A stretch of DNA of 64,000 nucleotides, taken from IMG/VR virus record IMGVR_UViG_3300027777_000022. One strand, written 5' to 3'. Numbering within the stretch: position 1 is the stretch's first letter; each line of letters begins with the position of its first letter. This document shows, in pieces, positions 44,836 through 59,204 of the stretch. The translations under genes were made by a program, and so were the position numbers. Source of the stretch: a virus. Taxonomy: Duplodnaviria; Heunggongvirae; Uroviricota; Caudoviricetes. The notes below the pieces were generated by a model. The model saw nothing but the letters and a program-made list of their open reading frames with translations, did not search any database and had not been told where the DNA came from.

Positions 44836-45957
44836 TTAGAACAAGTCAACTTTTTCCCACGGCAAATGGGCTTTACCAAAATGTCCGTAGTTTGTGGTAT
44901 CGCTGTAGATTGGGCGGAACAACTCAAAGCGATCAATAATTCCTTTGGGAGTGAGATCTACCATGTTTGGAATACTCAAAGTCAGATGCCTTGCCAGAGC
45001 TCGATCCTCACATTCCACATAGAAACTCATGGGTTGTGATAGTCCGATTGCATAACTGATTTGCACAGTGGCCCACTTGGCTTGACCACTGGCCACAATG
45101 TTCTTGGCAAGATATCGCATCATGTATGCAGCACTACGATCAACTTTGGTTGGATCCTTGCCTGAAAAAGCACCGCCTCCGTGTGGACTGTATCCACCAT
45201 ATGTGTCCACAATAATCTTGCGCCCAGTTAGGCCAGTGTCACCGTCGGGGCCACCAATCACAAAACGTCCGGTTGGGTTGATATGGAATTCTGTATGCTC
45301 ATCCACATACTGTGCAGGCAAAATATCACGAATAAGAGTTTCCACATTGGCTCGTAATGCATCAGTGGTAATACAGTCACGATGTTGAGTAGAGCACACC
45401 ACCTTGGAGATTCTTACAGGAACACCATCGTTGTCGTACTCAAATGTGACCTGACTCTTGGCATCCGGGCCTAACCAATCAAGTTCTGACTGCTTGCGAC
45501 GATACGACAACATCTCTACAATTTTGTGACTCCAGTAGATGGCACTGGGCATGAACGTATCAGTTTCGTTGCAGGCATATCCAAACATTAGACCTTGATC
45601 ACCTGCACCAAACGTGTCAGTACCTAGTGCGATATCTGCTGATTGTCCATGCAGTAGATTGGTAATCTCAACTGTGCGCCAGTCAAATCCTGATTGTTCG
45701 TAACCAATATTTTTAATTGTTTTACGAATTGTTGAATCAACTTCTTCATCATGCAGCACACCCTTGTACTCGCCTGCAACTACCACACGATTGGTAGTGA
45801 CTAGAGTTTCGCATGCACATCGTAACGCAGTATCTTGCGTGGACATAACCAAGTCCAACACAGCATCACTGATAGCATCTGCTACCTTATCTGGGTGCCC
45901 TTCAGACACGCTTTCGCTTGTAAATAAATAACTCATTTTTTCCTTTTTAAATTCCAA
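44836..45957 (-). CDS. metK: S-adenosylmethionine synthetase
   Basis: FTSESVSEGHPDKVADAISDAVLD, GDQGLMFGYA, FINPTGRFVIGGP, GRKIIVDTYGG and HGGGAFSGKDP all match MetK. Confidence 0.93.
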   Translation of the reverse strand: MEFKKEKMSYLFTSESVSEGHPDKVADAISDAVLDLVMSTQDTALRCACETLVTTNRVVVAGEYKGVLHDEEVDSTIRKTIKNIGYEQSGFDWRTVEITNLLHGQSADIALGTDTFGAGDQGLMFGYACNETDTFMPSAIYWSHKIVEMLSYRRKQSELDWLGPDAKSQVTFEYDNDGVPVRISKVVCSTQHRDCITTDALRANVETLIRDILPAQYVDEHTEFHINPTGRFVIGGPDGDTGLTGRKIIVDTYGGYSPHGGGAFSGKDPTKVDRSAAYMMRYLAKNIVASGQAKWATVQISYAIGLSQPMSFYVECEDRALARHLTLSIPNMVDLTPKGIIDRFELFRPIYSDTTNYGHFGKAHLPWEKVDLF

Positions 45958-46208
45958 ATCAAAAACTCATGTTTATCAACCCAATAAGTTTTTATCACCT
46001 GATCTCCTGGCCCATAAATGTACTGATCTGCAACATATGCACGTTTACCCCATAATGGTTTTCCGCTTAAGAAACATTTTTGTGGGAGCCAACATAATTT
46101 TAATTCCCACCCCCGGGCTCTATTCAATCCCCAGTCTTGATATTCTTGGGTTTGTTGTTCACGTGCCCAATCTTGCTTAACCCATTCGTGTTGTGTCATG
46201 TGCCCCAC
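45933..46208 (-). CDS. hypothetical protein (91 aa)
   Basis: ORF between queE and metK. Confidence 0.35.
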   Translation of the reverse strand: MGHMTQHEWVKQDWAREQQTQEYQDWGLNRARGWELKLCWLPQKCFLSGKPLWGKRAYVADQYIYGPGDQVIKTYWVDKHEFLIWNLKRKK

Positions 46209-47059
46209 TCGTTCTTGAACAACGGAACCTGTAGTCGATCACTGTAGCGCCAGCCTTGATTCATGGCCATAATAGCCACAGCCTTGTTGTTCAACGAGTA
46301 AACACTTTCCACTCCGCCAATGGGCATCAAGTACACATGGCCCTTGAATCCAGCTGCACGATACTCTGCTACTGCACGTTGAGCGTCTGCAAAATCTTCT
46401 TGGGTAGCGATTACCAGCTTCAAGTATGTGTGGCCAACATCTTGGTATTGACACACGATCTCTGGACGTATGGCATCCTCCCACTTTTCACCTGAGCAAG
46501 GCAATTTAGCACTCACACTAAATGTCAATGCTTCGCGCCCACGTGACTTGTTACCTAGGGACCAGTTCAGCAGGTACTGCCTAAACTCCGTACTGAGTTC
46601 TTGGGTACCATTGGTCTCAAATGTGATCTCTCTAACACCTGCCATCTTGGGATCATCCAACAAGCTGGGATAAGCACGTTGCCAACCCAGCAATGGTTCA
46701 CCACCTGTGATCACAAGATGTTCATCGCGCCATTCTTTAAACGGCAGCATGGCCGCAATATCCTCTGCCAGTTCAGCATTTTTACGCATGGGACTTAGAT
46801 TTTTGAAATCAGGATGCCAGCTGGCGTAGCTGTCACATCCTGTACTAACCAATGGCAGTTCTTCGTATTTTGTAAATGGATGCATGGCATTCATAACTGC
46901 CACTTCATCTGCTTCTTTGCTGAGTTCACCACGCGGCATGCCAAAGCCTGCGCATTTGAAGTTGCATCCAAACACACGCAAGAACACGCTGGGTACCCCC
47001 ATATAACGTCCTTCACCTTGGATACTGTAAAACAGTTCCGCTACTTTAAGTTTACTCAT
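46196..47059 (-). CDS. queE: 7-carboxy-7-deazaguanine synthase (QueE)-like radical SAM enzyme
   Basis: AELFYSIQGEGRYMGVPSVFLRVFGCNFKC plus ITGGEP. Start set to MSKLKV to remove an 88-nt overlap with the upstream gene. Confidence 0.7.
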   Translation of the reverse strand: MSKLKVAELFYSIQGEGRYMGVPSVFLRVFGCNFKCAGFGMPRGELSKEADEVAVMNAMHPFTKYEELPLVSTGCDSYASWHPDFKNLSPMRKNAELAEDIAAMLPFKEWRDEHLVITGGEPLLGWQRAYPSLLDDPKMAGVREITFETNGTQELSTEFRQYLLNWSLGNKSRGREALTFSVSAKLPCSGEKWEDAIRPEIVCQYQDVGHTYLKLVIATQEDFADAQRAVAEYRAAGFKGHVYLMPIGGVESVYSLNNKAVAIMAMNQGWRYSDRLQVPLFKNEWGT

Positions 47060-47847
47060 ATTTTTTGTGCTTTGATTAACAGATGCCAACCTAGGTATTC
47101 TTTCACTGCTGCTCGCATGTCTTCGGGCATGGCAGCAAACCAAGGCTCCAATTCGTACTCGCCTTGCCGGTACTTAGATACATTATACATGAAATTATGA
47201 TCTTGCCTAATTCTTAGCACTCGAAACTTTGCCTCCAATAGATCATAAATTTCTTCTTTGCTGTAGGCTTTGGCATAGGGACAATCTGATTGTGCTTCAA
47301 ATTGATCTAGTCCTTTTTGGATCATGGCATATTTCCAAGAGTTCTTTGCATATACCAACATGCGGAATTCTCCGTCGGGCACCAGGGCAGCATGAATATT
47401 ATTCAAGCATGCAGTCATGTCTGGATAGTGATGCAGTACCCCGCAACTGTACACTAGATCAAATTTGCCCAGGCTGGACACTGCTGCACTATCTGCACCA
47501 TCCATCACATGAAACTCTCCAGTTAGTCCAAACAAGTCAAATCTTTGTTGACTCATAGCTACAGATTCTGCTGAAAGATCAATTCCCACATAGTCTGCAC
47601 CATGTCGGGCAAATTCCACAGCATCGGATCCAATACCAGATCCTATTTCCAACACACGTTTGCCGCGCCACAAGTGAAAACTAGCAAAATCACGTAGATG
47701 AGGTTCTACAAAGAATCTACGTTCGGTGACTTCATTCCAATATTGTTCTGTGCCCGGATCGCTCAGACTGTGTTTGACATTACAAGGTTGTACATTCCAG
47801 TAATGTTTGATTCGATCTATAAGTTCAGTGGTCAAGTGTAGTGGCAC
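47056..47847 (-). CDS. class I SAM-dependent methyltransferase
   Basis: VLEIGSGIGSDAVEFARHGADYVGIDLS (motif I, GxGxG). Confidence 0.7.
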   Translation of the reverse strand: MPLHLTTELIDRIKHYWNVQPCNVKHSLSDPGTEQYWNEVTERRFFVEPHLRDFASFHLWRGKRVLEIGSGIGSDAVEFARHGADYVGIDLSAESVAMSQQRFDLFGLTGEFHVMDGADSAAVSSLGKFDLVYSCGVLHHYPDMTACLNNIHAALVPDGEFRMLVYAKNSWKYAMIQKGLDQFEAQSDCPYAKAYSKEEIYDLLEAKFRVLRIRQDHNFMYNVSKYRQGEYELEPWFAAMPEDMRAAVKEYLGWHLLIKAQKI

Positions 47848-48667
47848 TCCAGGATTTCATTAGACCTTTGGTGTCTAGTTTCAACATCTTATGCCAGATG
47901 TCAATTTTGTTTTCTATTCCCAATTTAAAATGTTCAAGATCGTAGCCCAATTCTGCTAGATAGTTGGCAATTTTTATTGCTTCTTGCATGCGGCGGGTAC
48001 GCCATGTATGATAATTAAAATCTCTAGGATGATTAGGATTACCTTCCAGCATGGGACGATTCTTAAACACATCGTCACCATTCTTACCTGTGAGATCAAA
48101 ACGTTCATGTTCAATCATTACAGGTATGGTAATCACAATATCCAGCATCCAGCCAATCTGACTGGCCCATGCATCGTTGATCTGATGTGGCGATATGTTA
48201 CCTGTAAGCTCTACCCATTTGCGTGGCAAGATAGGAAAGATAGCATACGGATGGCCATGATTGGTTTCGGCTCGTAACAATGCAAATCGATCATTGTGCT
48301 CGCGTATGACATCGTCCCAGCCCTGAGTGGTCATCACAGCATCATCGTTCCAAAAGAAAATCCACTTTCCGGTGCTGTGATTGGCCAGCTCATTCAGGTA
48401 TTCATTCAGTCGAAGATACCCTAATCTTTTGAATTGCATGGCACTATAGGTCACACCCTTTGCATCAAGATATGGAGCAATCACATCCACAAAGTATTTT
48501 ATAGTATCTGTGTCATCATCATCAAATGCTATCAATACTTCAATGCGTTCGGGGCAAGTGGCAGTACCAATCAGAGTGTGCAAGCATTGCTCCATTGGGA
48601 TTGGTCTTGCACGTACTGGTAATAGTACACTGATATCTATGTTGGGATTTTGTGCAGGCAAACTCAT
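47825..48667 (-). CDS. GT-A fold (family 2-like) glycosyltransferase, paralog A
   Basis: ISVLLPVRAR N-terminus and WIFFWNDDAVM (DxD); shares FFWNDDAVM and HPY-IFPI-P-W blocks with 50586..51416. Confidence 0.5.
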   Translation of the reverse strand: MSLPAQNPNIDISVLLPVRARPIPMEQCLHTLIGTATCPERIEVLIAFDDDDTDTIKYFVDVIAPYLDAKGVTYSAMQFKRLGYLRLNEYLNELANHSTGKWIFFWNDDAVMTTQGWDDVIREHNDRFALLRAETNHGHPYAIFPILPRKWVELTGNISPHQINDAWASQIGWMLDIVITIPVMIEHERFDLTGKNGDDVFKNRPMLEGNPNHPRDFNYHTWRTRRMQEAIKIANYLAELGYDLEHFKLGIENKIDIWHKMLKLDTKGLMKSWSATTLDH

Positions 48668-50589
48668 TGTGTTATACGGGTAATATTAGTTTTTCCAAAG
48701 TTGCGCTTTCTACTAAAGTACATGTTTTCTAAAAAACGGTCTTCGCTCATTTCGGAATCTTCAACAGTATCAAATTGGTAAACTGTGGCGGTTTTTAGCG
48801 TGGCATTGTCTTGTATGTAACCAAGGAAGTCATATTCAAATGTCTGTGTGATTGGCAACGATTTTAAATCTCTATAGTCAATTACATAATTTCTTTGAAA
48901 CTGTAGCAATTGATGTTTCACTTGCAAATCAATATTATAATGACTCTGCAAAAATTTGTCAAGCGAATCAAACACATAATTGATCATTTGATCTTTGACC
49001 ATGTACAGAGTGGTCCTGTGCATGAGGTTCCACCCGAACACTTCAATGTTACCAATACGAGGGTGGTCAATACGTCCTTTGGTCATCCAGTTTTGGAAAT
49101 AACTGCGTGTTTCTAAAAACTGTAATTTAAACCAAGGATCTTTTTGTACCCATGCATAGAGGTCTTCATAGAACTTGCTGTAATCAATGTTTTGGTGCTT
49201 GGCTAGATATCGTGCAATGTAGGTTGATAGACCGTTGATATGGAAAGTTTGTATAAAACTACTCCATACCAAGGTATCCAACATGGTCTCTCGTGGTATG
49301 GTCTTTGTGCTTACTACCACATCAATGCTTTCGTTGAGATCCACATCACCGTAACTGCCGCTCATGTAATCGTATACAGGTACACTTTCCAACTTGTACA
49401 GCTTCTTCTGCAAGAGATTCATCTCTGCATTTTCCAGCAATTGACATTGTAGAATGTTGATCCCGCCATGATTGCCTGCTCGGAAGATTTTCCAAAAGGC
49501 TTCTTTCCATGATTCTACTGTTTCCCCCGGTAAGCCTAGAATCAATTCTGTGTATACAGGAATATTGTTCCGGTCGCACAGTGCAAAGATTTCATCAATC
49601 TTGTGTTGATCAAGATTACGACGTTTGATATTCTCTAACACATCGTTGTCCATGCTTTGCACACTGACCGTGAGCCCTTGACCAAAGTTAGGTGACTCAT
49701 CAATCAGTTTCTTAACAATGCCCACAACTTCGTTCTTTTGATTCTTGGCCCAGGTCATGGAAAAACTTTCCAGTTTACCCCAACGCTTTTGCACTTCGAT
49801 CAGTTTGTCCACAATCATGTTGTCACGCTCTACAAACATACCAAAGTTGGCATCGGTAATGGTGACAAAGCCACAATGTTCACCAATCCAATCCAATTCA
49901 TCGTATACACGTTGCAGCTCAAACTTCTTGACTTTGTTGTATGTGAGACTGCCCCAGTCGCAGAATGTGCATTGATAAGGGCATCCGCGATTGGTTTCCA
50001 GTGTGGCATTCCATATTACTTCGGGGCTCTCAGACATGATACGATCAAATACGCCTGTGAGATATGGACTAGGCACTTCGTCTAGATTGTTGATACGTTT
50101 GGGATCTCCTGTGTCAACTAGTCCTGTGCCTGTATTGATCAAAAGTCCAGGAATGTGTGTGTAGTCAGTGCCGTAATCTTCAAGAATATGTCGAAACGTC
50201 ACTTCGCCCTCCATCTTGATCACCAAATCCATAAACGGTTCTTTTTCAAACAATTCAGGATCTTCAATAGCCGGTTCGGGCCCACCGAATATTATAGTAC
50301 ATTTGGGGTTGAGCGTCTTTACTAACTTTGCTAGTTTATAATTGTAGCGATGATTCCATACGTAAGTTGAAAATGCTACCACGTTACTGGTGCTTAGTTT
50401 CAGCGCCTGTTCTTCAATGGGTTCCCTGCGCCATACCAAGTGATCTACTTCCCATTCTGCATTGACTTTTTTTGAAGCCAGTGCATAACTCAGTATAACT
50501 CCTGCAGAATACGGCAAGTAGTAGGCATTGAATTCTTTAGGACCTTGTTGAAAGTTAGGTTGTACAAAGCTGATTTTCTTTTTTGTCAT
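48664..50589 (-). CDS. B12-binding domain / radical SAM protein (641 aa)
   Basis: NRGCPYQCTFCDW (CxxxCxxC) with an N-terminal B12-binding-like region. Confidence 0.7.
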   Translation of the reverse strand: MTKKKISFVQPNFQQGPKEFNAYYLPYSAGVILSYALASKKVNAEWEVDHLVWRREPIEEQALKLSTSNVVAFSTYVWNHRYNYKLAKLVKTLNPKCTIIFGGPEPAIEDPELFEKEPFMDLVIKMEGEVTFRHILEDYGTDYTHIPGLLINTGTGLVDTGDPKRINNLDEVPSPYLTGVFDRIMSESPEVIWNATLETNRGCPYQCTFCDWGSLTYNKVKKFELQRVYDELDWIGEHCGFVTITDANFGMFVERDNMIVDKLIEVQKRWGKLESFSMTWAKNQKNEVVGIVKKLIDESPNFGQGLTVSVQSMDNDVLENIKRRNLDQHKIDEIFALCDRNNIPVYTELILGLPGETVESWKEAFWKIFRAGNHGGINILQCQLLENAEMNLLQKKLYKLESVPVYDYMSGSYGDVDLNESIDVVVSTKTIPRETMLDTLVWSSFIQTFHINGLSTYIARYLAKHQNIDYSKFYEDLYAWVQKDPWFKLQFLETRSYFQNWMTKGRIDHPRIGNIEVFGWNLMHRTTLYMVKDQMINYVFDSLDKFLQSHYNIDLQVKHQLLQFQRNYVIDYRDLKSLPITQTFEYDFLGYIQDNATLKTATVYQFDTVEDSEMSEDRFLENMYFSRKRNFGKTNITRITQ

Positions 50590-51416
50590 CCAGTATTTAC
50601 TCGTCTAGCTGTGGCATCAACTTGATTATTGGTGTCGTTGGCCCGCATCTTCTCCCACGGATCCTGCTGCCCTTGCCATGCATTAACAAAAAATGTTAAG
50701 TCAAGCCCTTGATCCTGCATCCATGTGGCCAGTTTAGCAGTATCATTGGTACGTATTTTGACCATGTCAGGATGATTTAGATCTCCTGGTTGACTGGGAT
50801 CACCTTCCATGATACAACGCTGCTGATAGGTTGCGTCGTTGTTTGCACCAGTGATGTCATATCGATTGTGATCACAATGCACATCAATGCGTTCAAAGAT
50901 ATCTAGGTAGTATGCAATCTGACTCACATACGCATCATTGCTACTGTGTTGACTGATATGCCCTAGTATTTCAAACCATTGGCGCGGCACGATGGGAAAG
51001 ATACTGTACGGATGATCATTGTGTGTATGCACACTCAGCAGTTTGAATTCACCTATGCGCTTGCGTATACATGCATCCCACCCAGGAGTTTTCATCACAG
51101 CATCATCGTTCCAGAAGAACAACCAGGAGCCTTGACTGTGTTCGGCTAGTCCATTTACATATTGGTGCAAGTTGTTGTAACCCAGTGGCTCAAACACCAC
51201 GATCTTGTGATTGACTTTGTTTTGTTCAATCCACGGGCATACGTTGTTCAGCATGTTCTCCATGCCTACCACGTCATCGTTATCTACACCAAACAATACT
51301 TCAATTGAAGCAAAATCCTCAGCCAGGGTGCAGAGACTTTGTATACTGCTCATTAGTGCCTCTGCCCGCCCGCGAGTAGGTAGCAATATACTGATATCAA
51401 TTTTGCTATTCATCAC
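50586..51416 (-). CDS. GT-A fold (family 2-like) glycosyltransferase, paralog B
   Basis: ISILLPTRGR and LFFWNDDAVM; paralog of 47825..48667. Confidence 0.5.
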   Translation of the reverse strand: MMNSKIDISILLPTRGRAEALMSSIQSLCTLAEDFASIEVLFGVDNDDVVGMENMLNNVCPWIEQNKVNHKIVVFEPLGYNNLHQYVNGLAEHSQGSWLFFWNDDAVMKTPGWDACIRKRIGEFKLLSVHTHNDHPYSIFPIVPRQWFEILGHISQHSSNDAYVSQIAYYLDIFERIDVHCDHNRYDITGANNDATYQQRCIMEGDPSQPGDLNHPDMVKIRTNDTAKLATWMQDQGLDLTFFVNAWQGQQDPWEKMRANDTNNQVDATARRVNTG

Positions 51417-51892
51417 TCAAACTCATTATCCTCACGATGACCTTGACGGCCTGCCATGTTTGAATCTGTTTCACGAACTTCTACTCTGGTACACCACACA
51501 CGTCGGGCTTCTTCCGCACCGCAGTTGGGCAAGAAGATTGTGTTAACATATTCGTACAAAAAGTCAGCAATGCCTTCACATCCGGTCTTTTCTACTTCTG
51601 TTATCTTGGCCAATTTGAGTCTGCCAAGTTCCAACAAGTGTTCACGCATGGGATCATCCTGTGCTACTAAAAAAGTGTGATCAAACCAATCTTCTAACAG
51701 GCCCTTGAGTGGTTTTAATCCACCAAAGTCTGTAACCCAATTACGGGCATCTAATGTATCTGCTTCAAATTCAAAGTGAAAACTCATTGCGTAACCGTGT
51801 ATGAGATTGCAGTGACTGTCAGCTCGCCATTGACGATACGCTACAGGCCCAATTTGCTTGTAGGTTTTTGTTGAAAAATATTTCTTTGCCAT
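51413..51892 (-). CDS. queD: 6-carboxy-5,6,7,8-tetrahydropterin synthase (QueD/PTPS family)
   Basis: SHCNLIHGYAMSFHFE parallels QueD HKCGRLHGHSFMVRLE; also NWVTDFGGLK and FDHTFLVAQDD. Confidence 0.75.
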   Translation of the reverse strand: MAKKYFSTKTYKQIGPVAYRQWRADSHCNLIHGYAMSFHFEFEADTLDARNWVTDFGGLKPLKGLLEDWFDHTFLVAQDDPMREHLLELGRLKLAKITEVEKTGCEGIADFLYEYVNTIFLPNCGAEEARRVWCTRVEVRETDSNMAGRQGHREDNEFE

Positions 51893-51971
51893 GATTTTCT
51901 CCTATGTTAGATTATAGCATAGGCGGCGGAGTTTGTATAGCGGGACGATGCCGATAGGCCGCTGTGAATAT

Positions 51972-52376: not shown

Positions 52377-53164
52377 CGTGGTGCAAATTCTTGTTGTAGT
52401 TTGATATTGTCAAAGAACTCTTTCTTGGTTCCTGAATCGTCTTTAAATGCACCTTTGAGTACAGTGGTCTGTGTGAGACTTGAATGTGCCATGATACCTC
52501 GATTGGTGCAGCAACCATGTTCGGCTTGTATATAAACTGCTACATTGTCACTGTCAGTAACCTTCATGATCTCTCTTGCAATATCGTTGCACAGTTCCTC
52601 CTGTAGCGTACCGCGGCGGGCACACCATTGAGCAATACGAGTATACTTAGACAGGCCAATAAGTTTGTTAGCAGCCAAAATACCAATATAAGCAACACCG
52701 CTGACAGGTTGATGATGGTGCGAACACATTGAACGTAGCTCGCTACGGATCACAAGCATGCCTTCGTAACGATCGTCTGAATCATTTGGAAAAGCTGTTG
52801 CGTCTGGTGCTGGTTCATATCTGCCTTGCATGATTTCGTTGTAGTACATCTTGGCCAGGCGTCGTGCTGTGCCTTTAGAGTTGGGATCTGTTTCGCGATC
52901 AATTAGTAGTGCATCTAGAACTTTTTCAAATGCTGCTGTGGCTTCATCAATCAAATCTTCTTTATCAGGGCCAACCAGATAGTCACTGATGTTGTCACCG
53001 GCCCAGAATCTTTTGCCATCAGCTCGCATACGATCACGTATTACTGTGCTTAGATATTGACCTTGTGCTGCATCTTCTTTTTTGATATACAACGTTTGTC
53101 CTTCCAGTGGAACAAATTCTTCAGTGTGTGGATGTATCACCGGATCCGGTTTAAATTCTCGCAT
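52373..53164 (-). CDS. folE: GTP cyclohydrolase I
   Basis: LRSMCSHHHQPV (C-E/S-H-H), LIGLSKYTRIAQ and NVAVYIQAEHGCCTNRG align with FolE. Confidence 0.88.
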   Translation of the reverse strand: MREFKPDPVIHPHTEEFVPLEGQTLYIKKEDAAQGQYLSTVIRDRMRADGKRFWAGDNISDYLVGPDKEDLIDEATAAFEKVLDALLIDRETDPNSKGTARRLAKMYYNEIMQGRYEPAPDATAFPNDSDDRYEGMLVIRSELRSMCSHHHQPVSGVAYIGILAANKLIGLSKYTRIAQWCARRGTLQEELCNDIAREIMKVTDSDNVAVYIQAEHGCCTNRGIMAHSSLTQTTVLKGAFKDDSGTKKEFFDNIKLQQEFAPR

Positions 53165-53165
53165 G

Positions 53166-53777
53166 TTATTCCTTAATGGTTATGTTTCGCAAATCTGGAT
53201 ACTGTACAAACTTGGGTGATTCTGGAGCTGTCGCGTACTGTACCAACAACTCTAGTCCACGTTCAGCATCTTCAATTGAGGGCTTGTAGTGATATCCCAA
53301 CTGGAATGTTTTTTGTGTTTCCCAGGGTGAGATATTTAGGTCGCGACCATCATATCGTTGTTTTATCATCACTTCGTAGGCTTGCTTGTTATCTAACAGT
53401 ATAGCACCACCGTGACCTATTTGTAAAGGCTTTGTGTGTCCAAAACTCAAGCACTGCATCTGTCCTGTACGATACATGTCAGGTTCTAATCTTCTAGCAC
53501 TATCCCAAATTCTGGTGTATATGAAATTGTATTCACCAGTCCATGTTTGTTCAGTATCATCCAGATACACATAGTCAATGCCTAACTTGTGCATGGTCAT
53601 GGGTACACTTAGATAAGTGTAAGGGGTCATCTTGAGACCCTTTACTCGCTCGTATCGCAAACACATTTCTATGGCATGTGTACAGCAATCAGTCATGATT
53701 GCAGCAGGAGCACCAGTAAACCGGGCCAATGCCCGTTCAAATTCAAGGATTTTTTCGAACATACCAGGCCCATGCAT
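53166..53777 (-). CDS. short DegT/DnrJ/EryC1-like (PLP aminotransferase-like) protein or fragment
   Basis: FEKILEFERALARFTGAPAAIMTDCCTHAIEMCL and KPLQIGHGGAIL resemble DegT-family N-terminal and Lys regions, but the protein is only 203 aa. Confidence 0.3.
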   Translation of the reverse strand: MHGPGMFEKILEFERALARFTGAPAAIMTDCCTHAIEMCLRYERVKGLKMTPYTYLSVPMTMHKLGIDYVYLDDTEQTWTGEYNFIYTRIWDSARRLEPDMYRTGQMQCLSFGHTKPLQIGHGGAILLDNKQAYEVMIKQRYDGRDLNISPWETQKTFQLGYHYKPSIEDAERGLELLVQYATAPESPKFVQYPDLRNITIKE

Positions 53778-54699
53778 GTTGAATCATATCGTCCAGAGTG
53801 TACTGACGCCAGTTGGGCATCAACTTACTAAACTTTTCTGCATTGGCAGTGAGCACAGCAGGATCACCAGTACGACGTTCTTCTACGCCAATATACGGCA
53901 TTTTGCCAACAACATCTCTTGCACGACTCATTACTTGCTTGACGCTGAATCCCCGATTAGATCCTAGATTGTAAACACCGGATGGCACAGCAGCATCCAA
54001 CGCACACACATGAGCATGAGCAATATCTTCCACATGTACATAATCACGCACACAACTTCCGTCTGGTGTGTCGTAATTGTCGCCGTATACTCTGAATTGC
54101 CCGTCATCCCTTGTGGCTTCCAAGATTCTAGCAATCACGTGTGTAGCACCGGGTTCCTGCCCATGTCGACCTAACCGGTCGGCTCCGCAGGCATTGAAGT
54201 AACGAAATGCCACATAGTCAAGACGATATGCATGATGATAGCTGGCTAACACTTGTTCGATCATGCGTTTGCTTTCACCATACGGGCTCATGGGCTCGCA
54301 TGGATCAACTTCTGAACATGGAAACAGACTTGTTCCTCCGTACACTGATGCACTTGAACTAAAGATAACTCTGGTCTTAGGCAAGGCATTACAAACCAAA
54401 TCCAACAAGTGGATGGTCTTGATCACATTGTTGTGATAGTAATCCGAAGGATATTTAACGCTGGGGCCTACCAAACTGGTTCCAGCACAATGAATAATAG
54501 CATTGGGTTGTAGCTGTATCAATTTTGTTTTGGCTTGATCGCTATCAAAGTCCGCCTGAACAAATCGACTAAACGCATCCGTCAAGAGAGGCGGGCAAGG
54601 CCTACGATCAATACCAATCACCCGGTGTCCGACATCAAACAAAGCCAATGCCACTTGGCCGCCGATGTATCCTGCTGCACCAGTTACTACCACATCCAT
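53743..54699 (-). CDS. NAD-dependent sugar epimerase/dehydratase (GalE-like)
   Basis: VVVTGAAGYIGGQV Rossmann motif and YGESK (YxxxK). Confidence 0.75.
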   Translation of the reverse strand: MDVVVTGAAGYIGGQVALALFDVGHRVIGIDRRPCPPLLTDAFSRFVQADFDSDQAKTKLIQLQPNAIIHCAGTSLVGPSVKYPSDYYHNNVIKTIHLLDLVCNALPKTRVIFSSSASVYGGTSLFPCSEVDPCEPMSPYGESKRMIEQVLASYHHAYRLDYVAFRYFNACGADRLGRHGQEPGATHVIARILEATRDDGQFRVYGDNYDTPDGSCVRDYVHVEDIAHAHVCALDAAVPSGVYNLGSNRGFSVKQVMSRARDVVGKMPYIGVEERRTGDPAVLTANAEKFSKLMPNWRQYTLDDMIQHAWAWYVRKNP

Positions 54700-55875
54700 T
54701 TAGAATTTTCCTTCTCGTGTGTGTTTTCTATAGTCTACACTCATACGCAGCATATCTTCTCCATTGCCCTGCATGATATCTAGCACACGATCGATTGTGC
54801 CGTTGTTGCGATCGCTAATCTGTCCCTGGCGTGGATGTTGCCAAGTCAGCAGTATTTCCAATTTGTTCAGTGCATCTTCTATGCTCCAGGGAACATAAAG
54901 CCTAGAATGGTCATTACTAAAAGTCTCAGGGAAACTACGATAAGCAGGGTATAAAACATTACACCCAAGACTATCTGCTTCTGAGACCGTGTTAGAAACC
55001 CAATCTTGAAGTGCGCAATTGAACACAACACGGCTATCGTTTACAATGTTGTAGTAATCGTTCTTTTCCAAATCTTCGTAGATTACCAATTTGCCTGCTG
55101 CTTGTAGATCACGTGTGCGTTGCATATAGCTTTCACTATTGCTTTTTAGTTTGCCACCACTGCATACTGCAAACTCCACAGGCAGACTGGGATGACGAGT
55201 GTGCCATGCTTCAATCAAGTCCATGTAGAAGTCTGGTTGCTTCTCTTGATCCCACCGTGCTGAAAACACCACACGTGATTTGCGTTCAGACCATGGCTTG
55301 ATACTAGACACACGTGATTGCACTTCTGCCTTGCCAAATGCCAATCCTGAAATATTATAGATCGGAGCCTGCCAACCTGCAATCTTCATGTGTGCTACCA
55401 TTTCTTCGTTTGTGGCCAGCACGCCATCTACAAAGGAGTCAACCATCTTTTCATAGTGACCCATCCAAGTAGACATACCCCAAACGTGTACAAAATCATC
55501 AGGGTCAATAGACTGAGCCAAACATCTGACAAAAATGCGAGGGCGCAAGTGTACTGGAATTTGATCCAAGATATACGGGAGGCTCTCAATTCCGGGTTGA
55601 AACATGTCTTCAAAGTAGACCACATCTTCATTGTTAATTTCTCCTGCTTTCATCATACGAACAAGATTCATCAGTTGACTCATGCCAAAGTATGTGCGAC
55701 CATGCGCATCTAATACTTGGCCTGTCACAATTGCTTGGTCGTTGCTGAGTGTTTCACCGGGCACTATGACATAGTCAATCTTGCGACGATCAAAAACCGC
55801 AGTATTCCAGTGTTGTAACTGTAGAGTGTAACGTGCTTTATAGGGCTCTAGGCCCATGTAAAACAGTTTTCTCAT
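54700..55875 (-). CDS. GT-B fold (GT4-like) glycosyltransferase candidate
   Basis: KSRVVFSARWDQEKQPDFYMDLIEAW and ...SEADSLGCNVLYP resemble the GT4 C-terminal donor-binding region. Confidence 0.35.
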   Translation of the reverse strand: MRKLFYMGLEPYKARYTLQLQHWNTAVFDRRKIDYVIVPGETLSNDQAIVTGQVLDAHGRTYFGMSQLMNLVRMMKAGEINNEDVVYFEDMFQPGIESLPYILDQIPVHLRPRIFVRCLAQSIDPDDFVHVWGMSTWMGHYEKMVDSFVDGVLATNEEMVAHMKIAGWQAPIYNISGLAFGKAEVQSRVSSIKPWSERKSRVVFSARWDQEKQPDFYMDLIEAWHTRHPSLPVEFAVCSGGKLKSNSESYMQRTRDLQAAGKLVIYEDLEKNDYYNIVNDSRVVFNCALQDWVSNTVSEADSLGCNVLYPAYRSFPETFSNDHSRLYVPWSIEDALNKLEILLTWQHPRQGQISDRNNGTIDRVLDIMQGNGEDMLRMSVDYRKHTREGKF

Positions 55876-56096
55876 GTGCGATATCCTGCCAAGCGACGAG
55901 TATCCTCATCCCACATGTTCTTGGCTGGCTTGCCTTGAGTGTGTTTGTTGAATTGTTGGAATGCATAACTGCGGAAGTTATACAGGTCCGACTCGTTGAA
56001 CTTGTATCCGTAGTCCACGCAGAACTCACGATACTGCTCCAGGTCCTCCAGAGTTTGTTCAGCACGGGGATTGTGTTTGATGATGACTTTGGCCAT
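55872..56096 (-). CDS. hypothetical protein (74 aa)
   Basis: ORF in the co-directional operon. Confidence 0.35.
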   Translation of the reverse strand: MAKVIIKHNPRAEQTLEDLEQYREFCVDYGYKFNESDLYNFRSYAFQQFNKHTQGKPAKNMWDEDTRRLAGYRT

Positions 56097-56107
56097 GATA
56101 TTTCCTA

Positions 56108-56563
56108 TTAGAGTTTGATAGATTGATAAGGTTGCAGGACATTGTACACTATCACAGCACCATTTTCACCGTCTTCGCTCACGTTGATAATGATGCTGCG
56201 ATCTGGATAACGAGCAGCAATTTGCTCATATAGATCGTCACTGATCATTTCACAACTCTTGTGATCGAGTTCCAGTGTGCCATTGGCATAGAGATTTTCT
56301 AGCCAACGCTTGAACTGAATGAACTCAATGTCACGGTCGTTGTGAAATACTTGCACAGTTACTTCAAAGTGAAACATGTGTCGATGCGGGCTTGCTAGGA
56401 AACTCACATCATATTCATCGCCTGTGGCCAGCGCAGGGTCTGTAGCTGCTGCTGGATAGCAATGGATGCCTTCCTTTTGAAATCGCACAAAGATGGTTCT
56501 AAAAGCCTTATCTTTGATGCGTGTTCGGGTTTCTTCAAGTGCTTGTTGTTGTTGCTGTATCAT
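56108..56563 (-). CDS. hypothetical protein (151 aa)
   Basis: ORF in the DpdA-proximal block. Confidence 0.4.
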   Translation of the reverse strand: MIQQQQQALEETRTRIKDKAFRTIFVRFQKEGIHCYPAAATDPALATGDEYDVSFLASPHRHMFHFEVTVQVFHNDRDIEFIQFKRWLENLYANGTLELDHKSCEMISDDLYEQIAARYPDRSIIINVSEDGENGAVIVYNVLQPYQSIKL

Positions 56564-56569
56564 AAAATA

Positions 56570-57130
56570 TTATTCCAAAGTAAAAAGATTAGAAAAAGTA
56601 GATCGAGACATGGCCTCAAGTTTCTTCATGGCACCATCAGTAAATCTAAACTGATATGACCTAGGTCCGTCGGCCATGCGTTCAAAAAACCCATAGTAGC
56701 CACCCGAGACATAATTACGTTGATCACCGTCGATGATTTTTTGTCTAGCTACTTCGTAACATTTTTCAATTTTTTCTTGTATATGTGGTGCTGAAAAATC
56801 GTATACTTCAGCCGAGACTATGATTTGATCTCTGGACTTGATTCGATATTGTTGTTGTAATTTGTGATAGATCGTGGATTTTTTATACGGGGTTGATTTA
56901 ATATTTCTAGCAGACATTGTACCAACTGTGTGTGCCGAAGTAGCGTCGAGATCTCTTGTTTTGACTTCAAAATCACATTGTGGTATATCTGCCCCTGGGC
57001 CATTGGATAAAGGAACTCCTCTCTTGATCAGTTTCTTTTCGCCGTCTCGTCCCGACGCACCGCCAAAGGTTGGTGCAATAGATTCTCCCACAATGTTCAC
57101 TTTGAGATGAGTGATCTTGGGTTTCTTCAT
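56570..57130 (-). CDS. hypothetical protein (186 aa)
   Basis: ORF in the DpdA-proximal block. Confidence 0.4.
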   Translation of the reverse strand: MKKPKITHLKVNIVGESIAPTFGGASGRDGEKKLIKRGVPLSNGPGADIPQCDFEVKTRDLDATSAHTVGTMSARNIKSTPYKKSTIYHKLQQQYRIKSRDQIIVSAEVYDFSAPHIQEKIEKCYEVARQKIIDGDQRNYVSGGYYGFFERMADGPRSYQFRFTDGAMKKLEAMSRSTFSNLFTLE

Positions 57131-57663
57131 AATGTTTCGTCCTTGGTATATTTAGACCAGTCAGTAAAGTGGTCTCGATTTTGTAGTTCATGTATGCTGT
57201 GACACCAAACGCCTGGGTTGGTAGCAGCAAAGTCTCGATCGTCCAGCTTGAGAGTGGCATTGTATCCCAACTGACGGATGTAAGGCAGCTTGACAGAGAT
57301 CATTGGAATAAAGTTGTGATATTCAACAAGGGCAGATTCTAACAAGCCCTCAACGCAGTTGACATCTATGTCTAACGTACACAGGTATCCTTTTTGTAAA
57401 AAGGGTAAAATCATATTTTCCCATTGTGTCCACTTCACATAATCGTTAGTGCCGATAGTTGGAAAGCTCTGATTGGCACCAAAATAGATATGCTTGATAT
57501 GTGTTGACTTGTTTTCGTAACTGGCAAAGTCATCAATCCAATCTTGGATTTCTTGCACAGATTGTACACCTACTACAAACAATGTTTGTTTGCCCAATGC
57601 TGGTGTGTGTTCTACTTCAATTCCGGTGAAGAATTTTACTTCTTCGTGACCTTCTCGGTTCAT
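57127..57663 (-). CDS. hypothetical protein (178 aa)
   Basis: ORF in the DpdA-proximal block. Confidence 0.4.
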   Translation of the reverse strand: MNREGHEEVKFFTGIEVEHTPALGKQTLFVVGVQSVQEIQDWIDDFASYENKSTHIKHIYFGANQSFPTIGTNDYVKWTQWENMILPFLQKGYLCTLDIDVNCVEGLLESALVEYHNFIPMISVKLPYIRQLGYNATLKLDDRDFAATNPGVWCHSIHELQNRDHFTDWSKYTKDETL

Positions 57664-59204
57664 ATTTGATCCTGTTCAAGTTGTTGTAATGCTTGTGAGT
57701 TTAACAGATCTTCAGGGTCAGAGTCAACCTCTACCACATCAAAATGAACATTAAACATGGTGTTGGCGTTCACAGTCTTTTTACCTTTAAACCCACGGGT
57801 TCCCGGAATATCCATCCAGTAGTTACGATAGTGGTGAATAAGATTTTCTGACTCTTCACGGTCGGATGTGGCAAAGATTGCCTCTACAATGTCCTCAAAC
57901 TTTGCATGATCACCGTTTTGATTCCACAACATTTGAGGCCACGAACCCGAATCAAATGTTCTATTGGCACGTTGCACTGCTTCTAAATGGGTCCACACAT
58001 TGTGCCCCATTAGTAGTGCATACGAAAACGAATCCCAAGAGGTCTTGCCTTCTTTACCAATCTTGTTTAGATCGCCGGGTTTGTAGATGCATATATCCTT
58101 CATGGTCAAAAGCTGACTGAGTGGACTTTCATCAAAGTGATCAACCAAGCCATCTGCTACCACAGCCTGGCCGTAGGGTCTTGTGTCTGTGCTGTATTTC
58201 TTGTTATCAGCAATAGGACTCATTCTATAGCACCACTTGCCATCATGTGGCAAGTCAATCTGATGATATACTTGACCATTGGCAGTGGCCAGGAATGGAC
58301 TGGCACAATCAAACGATATGGTAAAGTCAGGGTTAACATATTTCCTAACAGCACGTTGGATCACTGTAAGCAACACAGCCCATTCCAGCTTTGATGTACC
58401 CAAGAAGTGCATCCAATCGTGCTTGCCCTGTTGCAGCAAATTGTCATGCCGTAGCGCCACAAGACGTTTGAGCACAAGATGTACATCACACATGTTCTGT
58501 CCACCCATTGACCAGCCATCAAAGTGTGTGTTAGGGTACTTGGCAGGATCGCAAAAGTCCTTCATTTCTTGATACCATTGTTCTGCTGAGGTGTGATTGT
58601 CACCTTGCAACACGTTCAAGAACTTGGCACCACCGTTTTCTTTGCCCCGGCGGTTGGCCATGAAGTATTCATTGTTGAACTTGGTAGCATCCACAGCTTC
58701 TTGCAGCGTGTTGATCTGGCAGGCTCGTGATGCCTTCTTGTCATGGATTACCCAGGTAGGAATATCCAAGATCATGCCATAATCACTCACGCTGTCAAGC
58801 CAAGCAAGAACAGCAGCACGTTTCTTTTGTGCTTTGGCACAACCTGAATTGGCTTTCCAATCACCTTCCCACAAGCCCTTGGCAATCTGGAATCCTCCTG
58901 AGTCGCCCAGCATAAACGTTCCGGGTTCACGATTGCGAACCATATCTTCGGACCAGTCCTGCTTGGAGAGATCTAGGTTGGCATGCCCACCTGAATACAA
59001 ACTCCAGCGATATGGAAACAATGCTTTTTGACTATTAAGCCAGTTCATCATTTCCATGTCAGTGAGCCCAGCTGGCATGCGGGCAGGATCTACATATGGA
59101 CCATTGCGTTGCTTGCCTACAAAGGTAGCATAAAATCCAGAGATTGCTGGCAGAAACACAGCATAGTCATTCTGCTTGGCTGTGAGATTGTCTTGGTTGA
59201 TCAC
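57660..59204 (-). CDS. dpdA: TGT-superfamily transglycosylase, DpdA-like (7-deazaguanine DNA transglycosylase candidate)
   Basis: FMLGDSGGFQIA (TGT DSGGFQ catalytic-Asp motif), NVLQGDNHTSAEQW (TGT QGG region) and HFLGTS (LMGVG-like). No CxCxxC...H zinc site as in tRNA TGTs. Same operon as folE-queD-queE. Confidence 0.55.
   Translation of the reverse strand: MINQDNLTAKQNDYAVFLPAISGFYATFVGKQRNGPYVDPARMPAGLTDMEMMNWLNSQKALFPYRWSLYSGGHANLDLSKQDWSEDMVRNREPGTFMLGDSGGFQIAKGLWEGDWKANSGCAKAQKKRAAVLAWLDSVSDYGMILDIPTWVIHDKKASRACQINTLQEAVDATKFNNEYFMANRRGKENGGAKFLNVLQGDNHTSAEQWYQEMKDFCDPAKYPNTHFDGWSMGGQNMCDVHLVLKRLVALRHDNLLQQGKHDWMHFLGTSKLEWAVLLTVIQRAVRKYVNPDFTISFDCASPFLATANGQVYHQIDLPHDGKWCYRMSPIADNKKYSTDTRPYGQAVVADGLVDHFDESPLSQLLTMKDICIYKPGDLNKIGKEGKTSWDSFSYALLMGHNVWTHLEAVQRANRTFDSGSWPQMLWNQNGDHAKFEDIVEAIFATSDREESENLIHHYRNYWMDIPGTRGFKGKKTVNANTMFNVHFDVVEVDSDPEDLLNSQALQQLEQDQI

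Follow-up and report, generated by a model that had tools for sequence, protein, structure and literature searches.

A putative 7-deazaguanine-type DNA modification module among the replication genes of an uncultured jumbo phage

A 64-kb stretch of an uncultured jumbo phage genome of roughly 348 kb, referred to here as the window, encodes FolE, QueD, QueE, DpdL and a DpdA-like transglycosylase, a set of enzymes that, on balance, we expect to exchange guanine in DNA for a deazaguanine. Together they would modify guanine in the phage DNA as a module of the 7-deazaguanine (dDG) type that is co-expressed with the replication genes. FolE, QueD and QueE would convert GTP to 7-carboxy-7-deazaguanine (CDG), DpdL would take off its carboxyl group to yield 7-deazaguanine (DG), and the 514-aa DpdA-like enzyme would put this base in place of guanine in newly made phage DNA, shielding it from restriction enzymes. 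A GT4-like GT-B glycosyltransferase may then add a sugar to the inserted base or its precursor, with GalE as the source of UDP-galactose. That the target is DNA and the base DG we infer from the genes, and likewise each glycosylation or methylation step.

Enzyme identities, fold, conserved motifs and synteny are shown by the analysis. The minus strand carries all 21 genes from the family B DNA polymerase (PolB, 61107-63773) to the S-adenosylmethionine synthetase MetK (44836-45936; Table 1), the co-directional chain of a preliminary description of this DNA. The stop/start overlaps of 1-4 nt that it reported hold in part: with the most plausible starts, 4-nt ATGA/GTGA overlaps occur at 13 of the 20 junctions, whereas the remainder range from -23 to +11 nt, the single exception being a 79-nt gap before QueD. 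This gap contains a promoter-like site (51939-51911); shuffled sequence yields promoter- and terminator-like sites at least as often. The proposed coupling to replication is supported, the modification genes being embedded in the replication module, and in four jumbo-phage lineages a DpdA-like gene is surrounded by genes for replication. Several genes had been overlooked earlier, namely DpdL, GalE, a half-size DegT-type enzyme (mini-DegT), a HIT-family protein and three glycosyltransferases.

Table 1. Genes of the chain, from the polymerase downwards, and two possible associates
Feature	Coordinates	Strand	Evidence
Family B DNA polymerase, first gene of chain	61107..63773	-	PF00136 3.7e-34, PF03104 6e-20
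396-aa protein	59920..61110	-	66/80 related loci
240-aa conserved protein, just upstream of DpdA-like gene	59201..59923	-	phrog_12062 2e-31
DpdA-like guanine transglycosylase, TGT-fold TIM barrel, 514 aa	57660..59204	-	unannotated zinc-less 514-600-aa subfamily
178-aa conserved partner protein	57127..57663	-	
186-aa variable insert	56570..57130	-	only 10/80 related loci
DpdL homologue, QueD paralogue, proposed CDG decarboxylase giving DG	56108..56563	-	motif LASPHRHMF
74-aa small conserved protein	55872..56096	-	55/80 related loci, always between DpdL and GT-B
GT-B (GT4-like) glycosyltransferase	54700..55875	-	profile match PglH/WlaC 6eji at 3e-4
UDP-glucose 4-epimerase GalE	53743..54699	-	TIGR01179 289.8 bits (cut-off 262.3); PF01370 3e-53
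Mini-DegT, half-size DegT/DnrJ-type PLP enzyme, about 198-203 aa	53166..53777	-	PF01041 9e-14, N-terminal part only
GTP cyclohydrolase I FolE	52373..53164	-	PF01227 7.6e-40, CSHHH
HIT-family nucleotide hydrolase or transferase	51972..52376	-	PF01230 8.8e-8; HinT-like 1e-10
QueD, 6-carboxytetrahydropterin synthase	51413..51892	-	PF01242 5e-15, CNLIHGY
GT-A-like glycosyltransferase 1, accessory	50586..51416	-	phrog_14945 glycosyltransferase 1e-11
Cobalamin-dependent radical-SAM methyltransferase-like enzyme (B12-rSAM), 641 aa, accessory	48664..50589	-	PF02310 + PF04055
GT-A-like glycosyltransferase 2, accessory	47825..48667	-	PF00535 8.7e-5; phrog_14945 3e-12
Class I SAM-dependent methyltransferase, accessory	47056..47847	-	PF08242 and PF13489 about 1e-16
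QueE, 7-carboxy-7-deazaguanine synthase, CX3C-X38-C cluster variant	46196..47059	-	IQGEG, GCNFKC
91-aa protein	45933..46208	-	after QueE in 13 QueE-centred related loci
MetK, accessory; likely start 45936	44836..45957	-	TIGR01034 2e-140
MazG/PRA-PH-like pyrophosphatase, possible associate	40733..41398	-	PF01503 5e-8
Short HhH-GPD glycosylase-like protein, possible associate	40294..40755	-	PF00730 2e-6

The polymerase is 49% identical to that of Pseudomonas phage PA5oct. Downstream of it, the 396-aa protein has no match in Pfam, PHROG, NCBIfam or the PDB, and the 240-aa protein is found in all 80 related loci, its homologues in PA5oct and Vibrio phage 2.275.O also lying directly upstream of the DpdA-like gene; on the strength of mass spectrometry, the PA5oct homologue is listed as a structural protein of the virion. 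The 186-aa insert gave no match in database searches and is possibly a PD-(D/E)xK nuclease, judging from a motif D..EVK read by eye, while a Pfam search with the 91-aa protein found nothing. The MazG/PRA-PH-like gene lies inside the module in two related loci (L076 and L088), and the short HhH-GPD-like gene lies between FolE and HIT/QueD in three others (L017, L068 and L071).

FolE, QueD and QueE, all named in the preliminary description, are upheld by the domain matches and motifs of Table 1 and, for QueE, by homology to annotated phage QueEs (46% identity to BUCT-ZZ01, 31% to PA5oct). Against the NCBIfam models, FolE (1e-39) and QueE (about 1e-12) score under the cut-offs. QueD is 70% identical to its counterpart in Acidovorax phage ACP17, and its CxxxHGY motif is common to the QueD of phiST, ACP17 and BUCT-ZZ01. 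QueE, whose start is most likely a Met 28 codons into the ORF 46196-47143, has invariant C32, C36 and C75 (CX3C-X38-C) together with QGEG and TGGEP. The DpdL homologue shares 59% identity with ACP17 DpdL and 34% with CGPG_00067 of phiST, and its motif matches the LxxxHRHxF described for the family (PMC10516641). QueC, QueF, QueA, QueG and a phosphoribosyltransferase (PRTase) were not detected in the 64-kb window, and QueC could be located elsewhere in the ~348-kb genome. Since DpdL is present and QueC is absent from the window, which is the gene pattern of dDG phages (PMC10516641), the base is probably 7-deazaguanine; the CDG pathway described earlier is thus retained for its three enzymes, but not for CDG as its end product. 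Against the proposed route stands the finding that dDG was not reconstituted in E. coli with dpdL and dpdA of phiST or ACP17 (PMC10516641).

The presumed inserter has no Pfam TGT match, and its best structural match among TGT folds is the DNA enzyme DpdA. By profile and fold, the nearest described phage subfamily is DpdA2, with a profile link to ACP17 DpdA2, whose homologues from nt-1 and VH7D are reported to place deazaguanines in the DNA of E. coli cells (PMC10516641). The catalytic motifs are invariant across 58 members of 27-44% identity, and D101 (in DSGGFQ), D147 and D299 would likely serve as general acid/base, in base recognition and as nucleophile, respectively. The earlier reading of a TGT-superfamily protein with DSGGFQ and without a zinc site was correct, but the missing site is not a DpdA signature, because bacterial DpdA retains it: the CxCx2Cx22H site of the Salmonella enzyme is "conserved in the DpdA family" (PMC10164549), and its loss here counts against a DpdA-type role. 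Members are accompanied by DpdL and QueE in PA5oct, in which no DpdA2 homologue was found, by QueF, YhhQ, QueC and FolE in Vibrio phage 2.275.O, and by a YhhQ-like protein, DpdL and GT-B in Methylobacterium, associations that tie the family to deazaguanine genes in independent lineages. We regard it as an undescribed DpdA-like subfamily within a system of known kind, the dDG type.

A tRNA target, with deazaguanine placed at G34 of phage GUN-anticodon tRNAs and then decorated by glycosyltransferases, would find a parallel in the galactosyl- and mannosyl-queuosine of animal tRNAs, and among the 34 tRNA genes of the window are all the GUN-anticodon tRNAs on which TGTs act. We consider it improbable, given the resemblance to DpdA and DpdA2, the missing zinc subdomain, the lack of QueC, QueF, QueA and QueG for queuosine in the window and the position of the gene within replication genes; moreover, DpdL phages have DG in DNA, and PA5oct, which carries a homologue, has G-modified DNA, judging from restriction evidence. 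Even less credible is a pre-replicative route, in which the base would become first a nucleotide and then a dNTP for the phage polymerase to build in, MazG would remove dGTP and the TGT-like protein would act in salvage or proofreading. PolB does adjoin the cluster, MazG-like genes accompany it here as well as in phiST and the two loci mentioned above, a phosphoribosyltransferase lies inside the clusters of BUCT-ZZ01 and the related contigs L182, L184 and L187, and 100% of G is replaced in phiST. Yet no PRTase is detectable in the window, no gene of the module is better conserved than that of the TGT-fold enzyme, whose catalytic motifs are intact, and published work attributes every known deazaguanine mark in DNA to DpdA acting after replication.

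Close homologues of GT-B bear PF00534/PF13524. Homologues adjoin DpdA/DpdL in ACP17, PA5oct, BUCT-ZZ01, X1 and BCSR5; the arrangement with both DpdA and DpdL recurs in at least six phage lineages with two different DpdA subfamilies. The pairing is seen in 50 of 80 related loci, a count limited by flank length, and in 10 of the 16 bacterial loci or islands examined, and one MAG (L220) encodes an 859-aa GT-B::DpdA-like fusion, its GT-B being of the BUCT-ZZ01 447-aa type and not of the family found here. Because the DpdA-like enzyme is so regularly paired with a sugar-adding one, a sugar may be present on the DNA base, and the conserved pairing makes the hypermodification suggested earlier more plausible; the deazaguanine could be glycosylated or methylated. 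Huimycin and dapiramicin, 7-deazaguanine N2-glycosides made via a glycosyltransferase and a SAM methyltransferase, indicate that 7-deazaguanine can receive a sugar from a glycosyltransferase (PMC7439116). Glycosylation by GT-B is nevertheless proposed only tentatively: DG lacks a hydroxyl group, so that the attachment site is not evident. The same pathway might also yield plain 2'-deoxy-7-deazaguanosine, the sugar and tailoring genes serving, for example, glycans of the virion or the host surface, or some unrelated metabolite, with the operon as a permissive site. This is consistent with the lack of the tailoring block and MetK in most relatives, with the production of dDG by phiST-type phages without any GT-B, with RHph_I1_18, Bakedbeans and Ahp1, which carry DpdL and no GT-B within 8 kb, and with a second glycan/rSAM cluster in the window; we judge it rather unlikely in view of the recurrent GT-B pairing and fusion, and of the sugar genes being interleaved with Que genes at two separate positions of the chain. 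We know of no description so far of a sugar-bearing purine in DNA.

Most relatives lack GalE, mini-DegT, HIT, the two GT-A-like enzymes, B12-rSAM, the methyltransferase and MetK, all of which are accessory. All but GalE and MetK could elaborate the base further in this sub-lineage, with MetK supplying SAM for the block. In mini-DegT, an SFGHTK lysine motif can be read, and B12-rSAM matches the KedN5-family model NF033712 (3.9e-72, under its cut-off). The two GT-A-like proteins are paralogues (50586-51416 and 47825-48667), the first being a glycosyltransferase and not a Que enzyme. MetK is confirmed, as first described (468 bits against a TIGR01034 cut-off of 309), but calling it "dedicated" was too strong since, of about 70 related loci that extend far enough downstream, it adjoins QueE in only one. 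Likewise, two radical SAM enzymes, QueE and B12-rSAM, and not three, occur in the interval; the third (6612-8063), 38 kb away, is a second B12-rSAM in a further glycan/rSAM cluster (3965-8063) with a GT9-like gene (3965-5377).

Among known systems, the huimycin and dapiramicin clusters (PMC7439116) likewise combine FolE-, QueD- and QueE-type genes with a GT-B and a SAM methyltransferase, but they belong to actinomycetes, contain QueC, make free small molecules from preQ0 and have no TGT/DpdA enzyme, the core gene here. The DpdA of the Salmonella Montevideo Dpd restriction-modification system (PDB 7ui4) is 14% identical to the 514-aa protein and uses preQ0, whereas the substrate here is probably DG; its CxCx2Cx22H site and its partners DpdB and DpdC are absent here. 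The dDG system of Cellulophaga phage phiST and relatives (FolE, QueD, QueE, DpdL and DpdA3; Cui et al. 2023, PMC10516641) is alike in its FolE, QueD (CxxxHGY), QueE and DpdL (LxxxHRHxF), the absence of QueC, a location between pathway and polymerase genes, a nearby MazG-like gene, adjoining DpdL in phiST, and a zinc-less TGT-like enzyme as presumed inserter. That enzyme, however, is 259 aa long and only marginally related (hhalign 81.8%), phiST lacks GT-B, GalE, GT-A, B12-rSAM, the methyltransferase and MetK, and its product is plain dDG, measured, while the product here is predicted from the genes. The DpdA2 enzymes of nt-1, VH7D and ACP17 share DSGG(F/L)Q, LD.P, (V/I)xQG, HxLG and (F/Y)DS with the 514-aa protein, which is out of BLAST range (E 0.03-0.1), about 100 aa longer and different in its C-terminal half. 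Vibrio phages nt-1 and VH7D have preQ0/preQ1 pathways, unlike the window, and ACP17 has the same local set of 178-aa homologue, DpdA, GT-B, DpdL and QueE. The PA5oct-like Pseudomonas jumbo phages (Wroclawvirus) encode a protein directly homologous to the 514-aa one (32% identity, 1e-73) in the common order PolB, 240-aa protein, DpdA-like, GT-B, DpdL, then QueE and RNase H; in PA5oct this region is without GalE, DegT, HIT, GT-A, B12-rSAM, methyltransferase or MetK. The PA5oct homologues are all annotated as hypothetical, a preprint naming QueE and a PTPS only, and the DNA of these phages is resistant at G-containing restriction sites, pointing to a modified G (PMC12191111).

The 514-aa product of the DpdA-like gene is a TGT-fold transglycosylase. 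Searches of the protein against Pfam, PHROGs, NCBIfam and PDB sequences returned no match, and profile and fold methods alone succeeded. The protein adopts the (beta/alpha)8 barrel typical of TGT, and fold comparison gave its highest score with the Salmonella DNA transglycosylase DpdA (7ui4; 20.2), followed by QTRT2 (17.8), bacterial TGT (17.2), Cap10 (14.5) and ArcTGT (13.8), with unrelated TIM barrels at 11.8 or below. Profile comparison of the family recovered ACP17 DpdA (96.6%, 6e-10), which is of the nt-1/VH7D type, i.e. a DpdA2, as well as BUCT-ZZ01 DpdA (93%) and, marginally, phiST DpdA3 (81.8%). The first of the viral-model neighbours is a 596-aa protein (7e-28), identical in length to the Vibrio phage 2.275.O homologue. 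It is followed by a phage protein carrying the annotation ‘tRNA guanine transglycosylase’, by an uncharacterized nt-1 protein of 464 aa (3.6e-10; nt-1 has a DpdA2 gene) and by ‘queuine tRNA-ribosyltransferases’ of actinophages. These comparisons agree with the preliminary description, which had recognized a TGT-superfamily protein by its DSGGFQ motif, and placement in a tRNA-TGT clade with intact zinc ligands was not seen, no Cys being conserved and the closest fold being that of DpdA. The nearest relatives of the protein are DNA-acting DpdAs, and at the sequence level it lies outside every described subfamily. Modification of G34 in tRNA, rather than of DNA, has on its side the 34 tRNA genes of the window, all GUN anticodons included, and we consider it very unlikely.

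The family is large, with 7,430 matches among the 8,000 candidates scored, not one of them with a Pfam domain, and 954 clusters at 50% identity. At the BLAST level, its only relatives in phage genomes are ‘hypothetical proteins’ encoded by PA5oct-like Pseudomonas jumbo phages (32% identity), by Vibrio phage 2.275.O and by Sinorhizobium phage Phosso. Across 58 aligned members, which share 27–44% identity, the family retains the motifs D101-S-G-G-F/Y-Q, L-D147-x-P, N-V-L-Q-G, G-W-A-f-x-G, H266-x-L-G and (S/T)(F/Y)-D299-(S/A)(S/A). D101 is invariant and D147 nearly so, and both align with the DSGGFQ and LDD of QTRT1, whose weak profile match (E ~1.2) covers exactly the DSGGFQ...GFAIGG stretch; by sequence, they are the putative DpdA-type catalytic Asp of DSGG(F/Y)Q and base-binding Asp. 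D299, likewise invariant, aligns by sequence with the SYDS of ACP17 DpdA2 and is a candidate nucleophile. The residues to which the three would correspond are, in Salmonella DpdA, D95 in DSGG(F/Y)Q, the base-binding D130 and the nucleophile D256, which follows the HxLG strand, and, in Z. mobilis, D102, D156 and D280, respectively. PF01702 (TGT) did not match the window protein even at E<=1, let alone above its gathering threshold, and gave weak matches in only three of the 58 relatives (best 0.0058).

No Cys or His cluster is conserved in the 58-member alignment. The absence of a zinc site had initially been read as a signature of DpdA, which was the wrong criterion, as bacterial DpdA keeps a structural zinc site, CxCx2Cx22H, described as a conserved feature of the DpdA family (PMC10164549). 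On this ground the 514-aa protein falls outside bDpdA, although it may function in the same way. The last 40 residues are acidic and predicted to be disordered (residues 474-514; pLDDT below 50), and the PA5oct homologue has a similar acidic tail; the segment may serve for docking to a partner in the replisome, the conserved 240-aa neighbour being one possibility.

Independent links to deazaguanine genes come from the cultured phages. The PA5oct locus combines DpdA-like (EST35_0316), GT-B (EST35_0317), DpdL and QueE genes, while in Vibrio phage 2.275.O the DpdA-like gene is accompanied by an amidoligase-like gene, QueF, YhhQ, QueC, FolE and QueE, a preQ1-type context. In Phosso, it lies between a gene for a 240-aa ‘virion structural protein’ and primase/helicase genes. 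PA5oct DNA is attacked by END nucleases sensing modified G, and the pathway genes listed by the authors are QueE and PTPS only (PMC12191111). There is no DpdA2-type gene in PA5oct, and its 540-aa homologue is therefore the clear candidate for the writer of the G modification, which it probably introduces. That this family would insert 7-deazaguanine into DNA in the manner of DpdA is indirectly supported by the G-modified DNA of PA5oct and by the Que-gene neighbourhoods in PA5oct, 2.275.O, Methylobacterium and the clade of the window.

In the window, the genes from PolB to MetK form one long minus-strand chain, as previously proposed. Taking the likeliest start codon of each gene, neighbouring genes overlap by 4 nt at 13 of 20 junctions, and the other junctions range from -23 to +11 nt, with the exception of a 79-nt gap before QueD that contains a sigma-70-like site. 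Matches resembling promoters or terminators are not enriched over shuffled sequence, and the operon reading is made because the genes overlap and their order is kept in relatives, not from signal predictions. The window has a GC content of 41-47%, and the 514-aa protein recurs unchanged on a 348,042-bp JGI contig. The source is an uncultured jumbo phage, and megablast of the region against 50,697 deposited phage genomes detected none that is closely related.

Features of the 64-kb window, in coordinate order, with the matches or properties on which each assignment draws
Feature	Coordinates	Strand	Match or property
GT9 heptosyltransferase-like	3965-5377		second glycan/radical-SAM cluster (3965-8063)
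34 tRNA genes	5521-31245	minus	nearly all amino acids covered
B12-binding radical-SAM enzyme	6612-8063		second glycan/radical-SAM cluster
HAD-domain protein	18117-19493		458 aa
RNA ligase	23886-24833		PF09511, Rnl1-like
TctA-family tricarboxylate transporter subunit	24853-26160		
RNA ligase	36302-37324		PF09414 + PHA02142 OB domain
HhH-GPD glycosylase-like	40294-40755		short, 153 aa
MazG/PRA-PH-like pyrophosphatase	40733-41398		downstream of cluster
MetK	44836-45936	minus	TIGR01034, 468 bits (cut-off 309); PF00438, PF02772, PF02773
QueE	46196-47059	minus	46% identity to BUCT-ZZ01 annotated QueE, 31% to PA5oct QueE
Class I methyltransferase	47056-47847	minus	
GT-A-like glycosyltransferase (paralogue)	47825-48667	minus	
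Cobalamin-dependent radical-SAM methylase-like enzyme	48664-50589	minus	641 aa
GT-A-like glycosyltransferase (paralogue)	50586-51416	minus	
QueD	51413-51892	minus	PF01242; CxxxHGY motif
Sigma-70-like site	51939-51911		
HIT protein	51972-52376	minus	
FolE	52373-53164	minus	PF01227, 7.6e-40
Half-size DegT-type PLP enzyme	53166-53777	minus	SFxxxK lysine motif
GalE	53743-54699	minus	TIGR01179, 289.8 bits (cut-off 262.3)
GT-B glycosyltransferase	54700-55875	minus	391 aa; GT4 PglH/WlaC 6eji by profile, 3e-4, residues 195-381
DpdL	56108-56563	minus	59% identity to ACP17 protein, 34% to phiST CGPG_00067
186-aa gene	56570-57130		D..EVK motif
Acidic tail of DpdA-like protein	57660-57782		residues 474-514
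DpdA-like gene	57660-59204	minus	514 aa
PolB	61107-63773	minus	

The identities first given to PolB, FolE, QueD and MetK hold in profile searches, and the CxxxHGY form of QueD is common to phiST, ACP17 and BUCT-ZZ01. That of QueE stands on its identity to the phage QueEs and on C32, C36 and C75 (CX3C-X38-C), QGEG and TGGEP, which are invariant in the seven phage QueEs compared, and falls short in all NCBIfam QueE models, where it scores ~45-49 bits, far under the cut-offs of 200-300. The chain also contains GalE, DegT, HIT, both GT-A, B12-rSAM, methyltransferase, GT-B and DpdL genes, all absent from the initial gene list. The DegT-type enzyme measures 198-203 aa against the usual ~370 and keeps its lysine motif; this short form is conserved in relatives (196 aa). 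A role for the 318-aa protein as a 4,6-dehydratase feeding the DegT enzyme was set aside, as NCBIfam places it as GalE. A 5hmC-glycan system (bioRxiv 10.1101/2023.12.21.572611) was also rejected, neither a cytosine methyltransferase nor a TET-like gene being found among the proteins scanned.

Comparison with related loci separates a core from accessory genes. The comparison used two sets of 80 IMG/VR loci, one built around the DpdA-like gene (66-92% identity) and retrieved by a search seeded with a 15-sequence subset of the 58-member alignment, the other built around QueE. Contigs that are long enough share the order PolB, 396-aa, 240-aa, DpdA-like, 178-aa, DpdL, 74-aa and GT-B genes, followed by GalE, DegT, FolE, HIT, QueD, ... 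QueE, a 137-aa gene and RNase H. The block of GT-A1, B12-rSAM, GT-A2 and methyltransferase is confined to the closest relatives, and in many others FolE or QueD is directly followed by QueE. MetK, presented in the preliminary description as a dedicated SAM synthetase of the operon, adjoins QueE in a single related locus (L097), and the three radical-SAM enzymes it was to supply come down to two in the interval, the third (6612-8063) lying 38 kb off. The 178-aa protein has a homologue just upstream of ACP17 DpdA. The 186-aa gene, located between the 178-aa gene and DpdL in 10 of the 80 loci, resembles a mobile insert and could encode an endonuclease of the mobile kind; the motif in its product is suggestive of a PD-(D/E)xK nuclease. 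The 240-aa, 396-aa and 186-aa proteins had no match among PDB sequences.

Several further genes were observed around the cluster. Homologues of the HhH-GPD-like protein lie within the deazaguanine cluster, between FolE and HIT/QueD, in three related loci (L017, L068 and L071), and the protein could assist base excision or act as a decoy that misleads END-type sensors. The MazG-like gene recurs in association with such clusters: two loci (L076 and L088) have it interposed between their 74-aa gene and GT-B, and in phiST (L003 6385-6972) it adjoins DpdL. The tRNA set includes His-GTG, Asn-GTT (x2), Tyr-GTA (x2) and Asp-GTC, natural substrates of tRNA-guanine transglycosylase, and the two RNA ligases beside the array suggest a tRNA-repair capacity. 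tRNA genes are also found in between the genes of the second glycan/radical-SAM cluster, and the TctA-family and HAD-domain genes are unusual auxiliary genes.

The likely base is indicated by DpdL, named by Cui et al. and proposed as the CDG decarboxylase giving 7-deazaguanine (PMC10516641). The window protein, a QueD paralogue, carries the diagnostic LxxxHRHxF motif as LASPHRHMF, in place of CxxxHGH, and aligns with the DpdL of ACP17, BUCT-ZZ01 and phiST. FolE, QueD, QueE and DpdA-like genes accompany DpdL in the operon, and neither QueC or QueF (by tblastn with phage queries) nor a phosphoribosyltransferase was found within the 64-kb window. In Vibrio phage Bakedbeans (L174 7251-8402), DpdL forms the C-terminal portion of a longer protein (383 aa), fused to a further N-terminal domain. 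The gene pattern here is that of phages whose DNA contains dDG (PMC10516641), and the product could be plain dDG, the glycan genes being unrelated; we regard this as rather unlikely. Reconstitution of dDG with dpdA and dpdL failed, and the authors considered that other enzymes may be needed (PMC10516641).

The GT-B glycosyltransferase is a recurrent partner of DpdA and DpdL. Its C-terminal portion is predicted to be a Rossmann domain of the Glycos_transf_1 type that would bind a nucleotide sugar; close homologues carry PF00534/PF13524, the window protein matching PF13524 at only 0.005. Homologues directly adjoin DpdA and/or DpdL in ACP17 (2e-19), PA5oct (2e-13) and BUCT-ZZ01 (67.5% identity), and likewise in Xanthomonas phage X1 and Burkholderia phage BCSR5. 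The DpdA is a DpdA2 in ACP17, BUCT-ZZ01 and X1 and a member of the present family in PA5oct; none was identified in BCSR5. No GT-B was found within 8 kb of DpdL in phiST, RHph_I1_18, Bakedbeans and Ahp1. The cluster of the Synechococcus phage BUCT-ZZ01 (L009) also holds a PRTase and a second GT-B (9093-9554 and 11010-12353), and PRTase homologues in three related metagenomic contigs (L182, L184 and L187) hint, with it, at a nucleotide-level branch of the pathway.

Bacteria harbour homologues of the DpdA-like protein at ~30% identity, including isolates of Limnohabitans, Polynucleobacter, Ochrobactrum, Sulfitobacter, Shimia, Methylobacterium and others. Of the 16 bacterial loci examined, 10 have an adjacent GT-B, nine an adjacent YhhQ/Vut_1-like transporter, 10 a small tyrosine integrase in the vicinity and six a 585-aa protein; the Methylobacterium order is DpdA-like, YhhQ-like, DpdL and GT-B. 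In a Devosia MAG (L220 6744-9323), a single 859-aa ORF joins a GT-B (1-352, 5e-61) to a DpdA-like domain (412-845, 1e-90), the GT-B being of the BUCT-ZZ01 447-aa type and not of the family found in the window. That the genes recur side by side, that GT-B is paired with DpdAs of two types and that the fusion exists together argue for GT-B and DpdA-like enzymes acting in one shared pathway, and synteny and fusion point to GT-B as a putative DNA glycosyltransferase. The elements of the islands in Shimia and the 15 other loci are the YhhQ/Vut_1-like transporter, GT-B, DpdA-like gene, 585-aa protein, second GT-B and small tyrosine integrase, and such islands may represent an undescribed bacterial DNA-modification or restriction system. 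That of Shimia ponticola (L219 141-12858) flanks an ABC-3C defence system.

In the proposed pathway, the best supported of those considered, FolE, QueD and QueE would convert GTP to CDG, DpdL would decarboxylate CDG to DG, and the DpdA-like enzyme would exchange G for DG in DNA after replication; incorporation before replication is highly improbable. GT-B would then probably add a sugar, GalE providing UDP-Gal, and this sub-lineage would tailor the modification further, using SAM made by MetK. A GT-B can glycosylate N2 of a 7-deazaguanine, as huimycin and dapiramicin show (PMC7439116). Attachment as a C-glycoside, at the pyrrole carbon that decarboxylation lays bare, is speculation. Hypermodification as such we only infer, and we tentatively propose that the joint product of the DpdA-like enzyme and GT-B is a 7-deazaguanine in DNA that bears a sugar, attached either through N2, as huimycin has it, or through the carbon that DpdL frees. 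In this phage, the accessory block would go on to aminate and methylate the sugar.

If true, no other genome would as yet have a purine with a sugar attached, and the same pair in integrase-flanked bacterial islands would constitute an undescribed bacterial DNA-modification or defence system. ACP17, X1, BUCT-ZZ01, PA5oct and BCSR5 are the cultured phages relevant to this question, and the DpdA/GT-B/DpdL pairing may explain why dpdA and dpdL alone did not reconstitute dDG. The assignment proposes a function for a very large family for which neither Pfam nor PHROG has a model, would close a gap in the rule whereby all deazaguanine-DNA phages encode a DpdA and identifies the gene probably writing the G modification of the therapeutic jumbo phage PA5oct. 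Such marks govern restriction-enzyme resistance and sensing by END-type nucleases, hence their relevance to phage therapy, and also affect the sequencing and cloning of environmental phage DNA.

Phage 7-deazaguanine DNA marks, DpdA and DpdL are already known. The large unannotated zinc-less DpdA-like subfamily appears to be new, albeit the supplements of PMC10516641 and a 2024 MMBR review may list it. The association of DpdA, GT-B and (DpdL), with one fusion and a presence in bacterial islands, also appears new; the dDG paper (PMC10516641) does not mention the pairing and contains no occurrence of the word ‘glycosyltransferase’. The same appears to apply to the elaboration of a deazaguanine pathway by GalE, DegT, GT-A, B12-rSAM, methyltransferase and MetK.
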